This document shows positions 11,888 through 14,989 of a DNA stretch of 64,000 bases, piece after piece. The notes under the pieces are model-generated. The model was not told the origin of the DNA, did no database searches, and worked only from the letters and a program-made list of their open reading frames with translations. The first letter of the stretch is position 1; the number at the start of each line of letters is the position of its first letter. A program made the translations under genes and the position numbers. The stretch is from Octopus vulgaris (taxonomy: Eukaryota), in the NCBI GenBank assembly GCA_951406725.2, contig OX597819.1:107818001-107882000 (forward strand), given 5' to 3'.

Positions 11888-12186
11888 GATAGATAGATAG
11901 ATAGATAGATAGATAGATAGATAGATAGATAGATAGATAGATAGATAGATAGATAGATAGATAGATAGATAGGTAGGTAGATAGATAGATAGATAGATAG
12001 ATAGATAGATAGATAGATAGGTAGGTAGGTAGGTAGGTAGATAGGTAGATAGGTAGATAGATAGATAGATAGATAGATAGATAGATAGATAGATAGATAG
12101 ATAGATAGATAGATAGATAGATAGATAGATAGATAGATAGATAGATAGATAGATAGATAGATAGATAGATAGATAGATAGATAGAT
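11888..12186 (+). repeat. (GATA)n array forming the 3' flank of the Tx1 element
   Basis: Direct reading; includes GGTA variants. Confidence 0.95.
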
Positions 12187-14878
12187 ATGTTTCTTTATTA
12201 GCCACACAAGGCTGCACACAGACAGAACAAATTACAAGGTAGAGTTTTTCTTTTGGGGGTAAAAAAAAAAGGGGGTTGGTTTTCGATCAAAAGGGATCGT
12301 AAAAGGAAAAGAAAGAGGACAAAAAAAGGGGAGGATTTTTAAAGGGGGGGGGGAGGAAAAAAAAGAAAAGGGGAGAGGAAAAAAAGTTGATCAATAGGGA
12401 TCGTAATCACAGAAATGTCAATATGAGGTGTAAAGGGGAGGACAGGTGAGGTTTACTCGTGGAAAGAAAAGCCTACGGAAAAGACCACGGTAACCTCGGT
12501 CAATGAAGTCATATGTTATATTTCTTTTTTTTTTTGCAAATAAGCAACTCTCTGTATTAATTTTTACGGTTCATAGAATCATAGTCAATGTGGCTTCGTC
12601 ATTCATACGTGCCATCCTTACAACATTCACCCATCTTTTTTTTAAACATTCACTAGACAAAACTTGCCTCTCTACTCTCACTTTCCTCTTCAAGTGATAC
12701 TTGAAGAAGTTGATGAGAGATTGACCAGAGAGGAAAGTGTTTGTCTCTAATCCTTTCAGGCGCGCCCACCAGATACATTCTTTCGCCATAGCCACAAGTA
12801 TGATGAAAATAGCTCTTCCTTCCCGTTTGAAGGAAGGAGGCGTGACGATATTAACGATAGACTCGGCTAATAAGCCGACACGTCCCACACGTGACAGCAG
12901 TCATTCGACATAAGCCCACAGGTCGGAAATTGCTGGACACTGCACGATTGCGTGCAGAGCGGTTTCGTCGCTCTGCCCGCATCTCGGGCAGGTCGGCCCC
13001 GTGTTTCTCGAGCCATGCCTATAGAGCTTATTCCGAACGGGTAGCGCTTCTCGGTAACACCGCCAGGCCAGGGATCTCTGGAAGTTGTCCATAGGTCCCG
13101 GGCCGAAAGTCGTTTGAAACAGGCGGGTCAGGTATTCCTCGTCGACGCCCAGGTTTGCCCCGGGACCGTCGTCGTACCTCCCCTCCACTAATCCCCTATA
13201 GAATACTTTGGTTGTGTTGAAGTCACTCAAGGTCGACCCGGGACGGCAGAGTTGCTTGAGAGCAACGCGGCACTCGCGGTGCCATTCGCCCTTCCTCGGC
13301 CTCTTTTTGATCCACGACTGCAGTTCGGTCATGGAGACGAGTTGCGGGAATGCGTGCCTCACAAACGGTGACCACACCTGTTCACCGTCGTCTACATAGA
13401 GCCGGAGATGTCGCAGTCTCAGCGCGTGTCTGCGCATCATCAACCACGGCATGCCCAGCCCTCCTTTTAACGGGTGTTGACAGCAAATGGATCGCCTGAC
13501 CATCGGGACGCATCCTTTCCACAAGAAGCGGAATAGAATGCGTTCTAGTTTGGTGATGGTAGGGTCGGGACAAGGTACGACGGTCAGGCGGTAGTAGATT
13601 ATGGACGCGATGTACGTGTTCGCCACCTCCGCCCGACCTTTTAGGGACAGTTTCCTCTCGGCCCATTGCTGGGCGAGAGTGACCACCCTACTCGTTATCT
13701 CGTTCCAATTCTTCTCCATTTGGAGGTCCGGACTGAACCAGACCCAGAGCAACTCAACTGGGCCGTCTGTCCAGCGTCCCACGACGGAGGTACTGGTGGA
13801 CGGCATGGGCTTACTTCTCCAGGTGCCGAGCCGCAAGCCCACTGACTTTTCCCGGTTGATTTTTGCTCCTGTCACCGCTTCGTAGTCTTTCAGTGTCTCG
13901 CCGACCCGCTCGATGTGCTCGTGGCTTGACACTATGACGGTGACGTCGTCCGCGTATGCAGACACGCTCGTCCCGCATCCCAATTCTCGCGGGATGCCCC
14001 TCAGAGTCGCCAGCTTCCGCAGTAGTGGCTCAAGAGTCAATACGTATAGAAGCGCCGAGAGGGGGCATCCCTGACGGACCGAACGTGCAATGTCGAAAGG
14101 TCTCGATAGATGTCCATTTACGCGAATTACCGAACGGATGCCTCTGTACAAGGCAGCTATCCAGCCGCGAAAGACGGGACCGAAACCAGCCGCTCTCAGG
14201 ACTGCCTCCAAGTATCGATGGTCTACCCTATCGAAGGCTTTCGATTGATCCAAGTTGATCAGGTCCCCACCCATGCCAGGTTCGTTAACTACCCCGTCTA
14301 TGATGTAGCGCATCAGATGGAGGTTGTCATGGATGCTCCGGCCCGGCACGGCGCACGTTTGTGCGTTGTCGACCAGTTTCTCGATGACAAGCGCCAACCT
14401 CTTGGCTAACACCTTTGTCAAAATTTTCAGGTCTGCATTGAACAGAGTGATTGGTCTAAAGTTATCTATAATGTTCCCCTTGTTTGGATCTTTCTTCAGC
14501 AGTGTTACAGCTCCTCGACTCACAAAACCGGGTATGCTCCCGTTTTGCTGCCAGTTGCAGTATACCGCTGCCAAGACGTCTCCAAACAAGTCTGGCATAC
14601 AATTGTAAAACTCGTAGGGCAGACCATCCAAACCCGGCGATTTGTCTCTCGAGCATTCTGCCATCGCGTCCCGCACATCCGCCGCCGTGATGGCACCTTC
14701 GCAGCACTCTGCCTCTCTTGCCGAGAGTCGTGGTAGGCTGTGCAGGTAGGCACTGAAGTCCACCCTGCGTTCACGCTCACCACTCGTCCCGTACAGTCGG
14801 GCAAAGTGCCGCTGAAATGTCTCGCACATCTTGCTGGGCTCGAGCAATTCGTGCCCTTGTTCATCTACCAGAGACCGA
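12187..14878 (-). mobile_element. 5'-truncated Tx1/L1-clade LINE with a young, near-intact ORF2
   Basis: RT motifs KSPGLDGLP, FRPITL, DQSKAFDRV, VRQGCPLS, YADD; C-terminal CPRC..ETALH..QC zinc knuckle; 3'UTR with AATAAA running straight into (ATCT)n. Confidence 0.95.
12571..14847 (-). pseudogene. Tx1-like ORF2 (RT plus zinc finger; endonuclease lost to truncation) with one in-frame TGA
   Basis: ORFs 12901..14847 and 12571..12888 are in the same frame, separated only by TGA at 12901-12903. Confidence 0.9.
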
Positions 14879-14989
14879 AGATAGATAGATAGATAGATAG
14901 ATAGATAGATAGATAGATAGATAGATAGATAGATAGATAGATAGATAGATAGATAGATAGATAAACAATAAAGCTAGTCGCCAAATCAC

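Follow-up and report, generated by a model that had tools for sequence, protein, structure and literature searches.

A Tx1-like LINE copy lying between (GATA)n microsatellite arrays in an octopus genome and a possible preference of its family for this repeat

Within the Tx1 clade, the teleost element Kibi targets (TC)n and Koshi targets (TTC)n, as the original prediction for the present locus had also stated, and the crocodilian families Tx1-1_Crp, Tx1-5_Crp, Tx1-6_Crp, Tx1-1_Gav and Tx1-2/3/5/8_AMi target (TTCC)n or (TTTC)n (PMC4494074). Further Tx1 targets given in that paper are U2, U5, 5S, satellites and transposons, and a family was regarded there as target-specific when one sequence type occupied more than 20% of the family flanks. 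Microsatellites are also targeted by the LINEs Waldo (ACAY), Mino (AC) and Dong (TAA) (PMC3812793) and by Togen and some HERO elements, with (TG)n as the target of Togen (PMC4640811). The mechanism of microsatellite targeting by APE-type retrotransposons is not well understood (PMC3812793). Target-specific integration can be reinforced when an element is transcribed together with its target genes (PMC4494074).

The 2026 annotation of Octopus vulgaris contains 80 L1-Tx1 families (56.3 Mb), and 13 L1-Tx1 families of this species have been recently active, with 421 insertions (PMC13282606, Table 1). No target-site analysis was found in the text of that paper, and the words "target" and "GATA" are absent from its supplement. 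L1-Tx1 elements expanded in coleoids according to passages of PMC8967140 that name no targets, and among the first 25 of the 165 places in which the RepeatMasker table of PMC9115989 gives such names, only non-octopus Tx1 names occur. No GATA-targeting LINE was found in the papers searched; the further targets in Figure 3 and the supplements of PMC4494074, and those in Kojima and Fujiwara 2004, Repbase and Dfam, may include one.

The window analysed here is a stretch of 64 kb. As shown in Table 1, it contains a LINE copy flanked on both sides by tetranucleotide arrays. The original prediction had placed a LINE within (GATA)n, with both junctions on the array and no poly(A); this description is accurate, the arrays comprising 21 and 75 units. 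On the LINE strand, (TATC)21 is followed directly by TTCGG at the 5' junction, and AATAAAGAAACA is followed directly by (TATC)n at the 3' junction. The copy starts within ORF2, upstream of the RT domain, and the endonuclease domain is missing owing to the truncation. The reading frame has a single in-frame stop, as predicted. The LINE is an inactive, 5'-truncated member of an abundant L1/Tx1-type family, and is likely to be the same catalogue entry as one of the L1-Tx1 families of PMC13282606.

Table 1. Coordinates of the features in the 64-kb window.
Feature	Position	Strand	Remarks
L1/Tx1-type LINE, 5'-truncated	12188..14879	-	2,692 bp; GC 52% vs 37% for the window
3' UTR	12188..12570	-	383 nt, pyrimidine-rich, ends AATAAAGAAACA without poly(A); AATAAA at 12194-12199
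LINE tail common to type-1 SINEs of the window	12188..12240	-	last ~50 nt; shuffle p 0.003-0.007, 3 of 3 tails
ORF2 remnant	12571..14877	-	768 codons, natural end at 12571, one premature in-frame stop at 12901-12903
zf-RVT zinc-binding domain	12916..13074	-	E 2.8e-07
Reverse transcriptase domain	13834..14484	-	Pfam RVT_1, E 9.8e-31
3' flank microsatellite	11888..12187		(TATC)n on LINE strand, 75 units: 66 TATC and 9 TACC
5' flank microsatellite	14880..14963		21 TATC units on LINE strand, all pure, 84 bp
Imperfect palindrome	14962..15151		190 bp, 74% self-complementary, adjoins the 5' array on its outer side, at the last TA of the array
Type-1 SINE with LINE tail	976..1204	+	followed by TAGG
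Type-1 SINE with LINE tail	16567..16795	+	within (TA)n on both sides
Type-1 SINE pair with LINE tail	60572..60983	-	head-to-tail, each followed by TA
SINE body with type-2 tail, older copies	515-642, 6762-6945, 37770-37989, 43682-43830, 60990-61215		

It had also been claimed that the insertion is in phase within the array. The arrays on both sides were confirmed, and the phase proved not to be diagnostic. The T at 14879 forms a 1-nt microhomology between the LINE and the 5' array. In one sequencing run (X8 loose end), other copies of the family continue past 14879 into more ORF2 sequence, so that this T can be assigned to the LINE and to the array alike. If it is given to the LINE, the insertion is in phase; if it is given to the array, a 4n+1-base duplication results. 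The junction fits both equally well, and the apparent duplication of about 17 bases in the sister elements described below would fit the latter. Since one common T leaves the phase ambiguous, little weight is placed on it.

An origin of the 5' array as the tail of another copy lying upstream was considered and rejected, in agreement with the original prediction: neither AATAAA nor a LINE tail precedes the array on the LINE strand. The palindrome at the outer end of this array is probably MITE-like. Outside the LINE locus, microsatellites make up 6.5% of the window and GATA arrays 228 of 60,924 bases (0.37%), with four other GATA arrays of 14-46 units listed. Positions with 20 bp of GATA on both sides number 111 (0.18%, a chance figure that is post hoc for a single event picked by a scan), and those with 20 bp of any microsatellite on both sides number 1,206 (2.0%).

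The window holds remains of several other elements. At 638-822, between SINE pieces, lies an internal piece of an older, frameshifted member of this LINE lineage (71% nucleotide identity over 122 bp), with no GATA beside it. The minus strand carries a second, unrelated LINE at 20105-22695, which includes part of an endonuclease and an open RT frame of 641 codons, and a C-terminal fragment of a hAT transposase was detected at 44321-44860 (E 5e-05).

The L1/Tx1-type identity given in the original prediction is backed by domains and relatives. ORF2 has both RVT_1 and zf-RVT, the combination of RT and C-terminal zinc finger that marks the L1 group. A profile of the LINE copy and 10 relatives (A2) matched human L1 ORF2p with an E value of 1.5e-111 versus 5e-36 for R2, and L1 ORF2p was the nearest among solved LINE proteins. 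The Atlas cluster "Transposon TX1 uncharacterized 149 kDa protein family" scored 0.96 for the LINE protein. A FastTree phylogeny was constructed from 115 RT regions, thinned at 80% identity from the 240 with enough overlap among 299 proteins. In this tree the LINE copy grouped with P0121, P0243 and an Argonauta protein (support 0.997), and the group was sister (support 1.0) to ORF2s of 1,150 aa with an overall identity of 42-48%. Proteins from fish, amphioxus and sea cucumber were tree neighbours at 33-40%. The designation Tx1-like is well supported, the tree having been built without named Tx1 references.

The LINE family is plainly very repetitive. The LINE stretch or part of it was contained in 20 of the 24 sequencing runs listed, those 20 coming from 11 studies under six species labels, and the best share of words across runs was 0.77. 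In four runs, 54,048, 36,265, 14,931 and 11,497 contigs matched the LINE at 88% or more, most of them at 90-99%; read depth over the LINE is not usable as copy number. At 12903, about 99% of the summed depth in each of four runs carried another base, which indicates that the premature stop is private to this copy. Together with the 13 recently active families (PMC13282606), this lends support to the earlier suggestion that active relatives may exist. The family majority differed from the copy at most of the 40 difference positions listed (there are 400 more), and the copy therefore has a divergence of about 1.5% or more and is not of very recent origin.

The closest proteins to ORF2 were 70-73% identical, and the closest named one was an Argonauta hians protein (65%). 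The first ~69 residues of an O. bimaculoides neprilysin-1 model (P0301, XP_014772527.1) belong to the LINE lineage, with 68% identity to P0121, and may be explained by exonisation or by an error in the gene model. These matches, together with the richness of the window in microsatellites, make an octopus the likely host. A protein assigned to Herbaspirillum sp. (P0173) was 63% identical to the LINE ORF2 and likely represents host contamination of a bin. No further LINE copies were found in the viral, metagenome, genome, plasmid and phage collections (for metagenomes and genomes, as judged by close-relative alignment). A wider scan of metagenomes yielded 80 distant loci, mostly at 22-33% identity, and none of the 126 loci gathered from the collections had three or more GATA/TATC units. 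When a full-length endonuclease was sought in the close group, the query and the possibly exonised O. bimaculoides piece were the only matches, and the LINE tail searched as a peptide gave one unrelated match. No GATA run was present in the 24 loose ends listed (of 3,913); by eye nearly all of these are variants or continuations of the LINE, and for this reason they weigh little on the question of flanks. A 17.8-Mb bacterial bin (G002, locus L120) was full of animal-type microsatellites and LINE fragments and is likely to be heavily contaminated with host DNA; though rich in GATA, it gave distant LINE relatives only (at most 35% for long matches) and no SINE match.

Insertion contexts could be read in the sister lineage. 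A second bacterial bin (G001) contains animal contigs with 75 matches to the LINE ORF2, mostly in head-to-tail arrays. The arrays (L081-L119, L121, L123, L126-L145) consist of full-length Tx1-like units of about 6.4-6.9 kb, most with stop-free ORF2s. The sister elements encode APE, RT and zf-RVT, and zf-CCHC was present in both of the ORF1s tested. An ORF1 with a CCHC zinc knuckle is typical of Tx1; the truncated LINE copy has none. One sister ORF2 had a cuttlefish (Acanthosepion) protein 74% like it. Fifty distinct tail contexts were obtained from 63 overlapping loci of one assembly; they are not independent, and the binning favoured array-rich contigs. None of the 50 showed poly(A) after the tail and none a microsatellite. 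Instead, AATAAA was followed directly in each subfamily by its own motif of 12-18 nt. The motif also occurred at array ends adjoining unique host DNA (L127, L128, L133) and, where the following unit was 5'-truncated, between that unit and the preceding tail (L090, L115), and one array had nearly identical 18 bases ahead of its first unit (L140 vs L133). The motif is likely to be a target duplication at a preferred sequence. These contexts show that the sister lineage is sequence-selective and does without poly(A), so that specificity of the LINE family becomes more probable a priori; they also show that microsatellite targeting is not common to the nearest readable relatives of the LINE. The LINE tail gave no alignment with four sister tails (p 0.15-0.68), and three GATA matches in G001 sit in other simple repeats, not in LINE tails.

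The commonest SINE of the window occurs with two types of tail. In BLAST, the type-1 tail was identical to the last ~50 nt of the LINE at 33 of 42 positions (~79%), and shuffle tests of the three type-1 tails tested gave p values of 0.003, 0.007 and 0.003 (uncorrected, as are all p values of the 40 tail comparisons). Type-1 tails matched none of the four sister tails (p 0.08-0.96). The type-2 tail matched sister tail A with p 0.003 in three of five copies and with 0.023 and 0.13 in the other two; one of the five matched the LINE tail (p 0.013). The two tail types suggest a switch of Tx1 partner. TA follows each of the four type-1 ends, and GATA adjoins none of them. By eye the type-1 SINE has a tRNA-like head with A and B boxes; no Rfam match was found in the window. 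A stem-loop in the LINE tail was unsupported (folding z -0.30), and the SINE tails folded weakly (z 0.09 to -0.72 for three type-1 tails, -1.48 for one type-2 tail); a sister-lineage tail was the only one that folded well (z -3.13). L1-clade tails were present on only 3 of 58 paired SINEs in PMC3747384, and the pairing of these SINE and LINE tails is noteworthy in itself on that account. The octopus tRNA-CORE SINEs include OK, OR1 and OR2; passages of PMC4758252 and PMC4824008 name OR1 and OR2 as CORE SINEs and give no partner LINE. Through their tails, the SINEs of the window offer a pointer to what mobilises their class, which accounts for 11.6% of the O. vulgaris genome (PMC13282606).

Because flanks were read for a single insertion, GATA targeting rests on one copy. 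The probabilities that we attach to the readings are estimates from the window fractions and from a prior of about 1/10 for a Tx1 family targeting a microsatellite. With n = 1 insertion, we give roughly even chances to the reading that the family prefers the (TATC)n/(GATA)n microsatellite as a target. This preference is favoured by the pure arrays on both sides, an arrangement offered by 0.18% of the other window positions, and by the 5' array, which is not a neighbour's tail, next to a LINE without poly(A). It is also favoured by the Tx1 families described on (TC)n, (TTC)n, (TTCC)n and (TTTC)n (PMC4494074) and by the selectivity of the sister lineage, in which poly(A) was never seen in 50 contexts. 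The absence of microsatellites from the same 50 contexts weighs against it, as do the four tail-sharing SINEs, all with TA and one in (TA)n, and the pyrimidine-only character, on one strand, of the known Tx1 microsatellite targets, which TATC does not share. The microsatellite richness of the genome (6.5% of the window) weighs in the same direction, as a scan selects coincidences. The main rival, which we consider rather improbable, is that the family loosely favours the TA steps of AT-rich simple repeats ((TA)n, (TATG)n, (TATC)n, (TAA)n) and that this copy met the GATA array by chance. The LINE 3' junction opens on TA like the four SINE ends, and the SINE with (TA)n on both sides would be a further case. 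However, AGAT contributes only 232 of the 2,775 bases (8%) of AT, ACAT, AGAT and AAT arrays elsewhere in the window, so that the rarer motif would have been used, and at ~79% likeness of the tails the SINE may depend on a different Tx1 family for its mobility.

It is unlikely that the family has little insertion preference, or a non-repeat motif as in the sister lineage, and that the locus is a chance event in a microsatellite-rich genome. Such an explanation agrees with the sister flanks, and in a family as abundant as this one (54,048 contigs in one run) some copies would lie in GATA arrays anyway and would be flagged by a scan; the small fraction of qualifying positions, 0.18% for GATA and 2.0% for any microsatellite, argues against it. 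We regard it as very improbable that the arrays were born from the LINE. The 3' array would then be a (TATC)n tail of the kind known from RTE, L2 and CR1 LINEs, and the 5' array would have expanded from a small duplicated seed or arisen through a template jump. The 3' array of 75 units is far longer than the 5' array and the four other GATA arrays listed, and an octopus RTE ends in a microsatellite (PMC9115989). However, the sister elements lack a repeat tail, and the pure 84-bp array at the truncated 5' end needs a second event.

If the family does prefer GATA, the insertion might have proceeded as follows. The APE endonuclease of a full-length parent would nick a (GATA)n strand. The LINE RNA would be cleaved shortly past AATAAA and would end in (AUCU)n copied from the flank of the parent itself. 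This end could base-pair at the nick, so that reverse transcription is primed without poly(A), and synthesis would halt after 2.7 kb and join the upstream array via one common base. Priming by (AUCU)n would account both for the missing poly(A) and for a self-renewing target. Flank read-through aids targeting in R1-clade elements. A wider proposal, which we put forward as doubtful, is that a cephalopod Tx1 lineage sets its target via the few flank bases that its RNA carries past AATAAA. The octopus branch would thereby have switched to (GATA)n, which would be the first microsatellite target of mixed bases among Tx1 elements, and would have given the main octopus SINEs their 3' tails, a rare SINE/LINE partnership of the L1 clade. 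If the family is GATA-specific, the range of motifs targeted by APE-type retrotransposons gains a new class. Close relatives with different targets would then form a natural series for mapping specificity by endonuclease or by RNA 3' end, and an abundant LINE would break, and perhaps spread, GATA arrays in octopus genomes. If the flanks of the family turn out to be mixed, the locus is an ordinary truncated LINE.

In the likely movement of a SINE by an L1/Tx1-type LINE, the octopus elements resemble the pair of SINEU and Tx1-Mar (PMC4494074) as well as the three SINEs carrying tails of the L1 clade (PMC3747384). SINEU was tied to Tx1 by common targets and heads (PMC4494074), whereas the octopus SINEs are tied by the LINE 3' tail. 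Waldo, Mino, Dong, Togen and HERO also use a simple repeat as a harmless and abundant landing site; they belong to other clades and have other motifs, none of those cited above from PMC3812793 and PMC4640811 being GATA. The closest likeness is to Kibi, Koshi and the crocodilian families, which, like the LINE copy, lie within a simple repeat on both sides and are APE-type L1/Tx1 elements, a type to which the truncated LINE probably belongs. Their specificity was shown across copies, whereas that of the LINE is suggested by one copy from a likely cephalopod host. By their descriptions these families are set apart by pyrimidine-only runs, and with its (TATC)n flanks the LINE falls outside the group defined by (TC)n, (TTC)n, (TTCC)n or (TTTC)n. 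It is about an even call that TATC/GATA represents a new target variant of the known microsatellite-targeting habit of Tx1.
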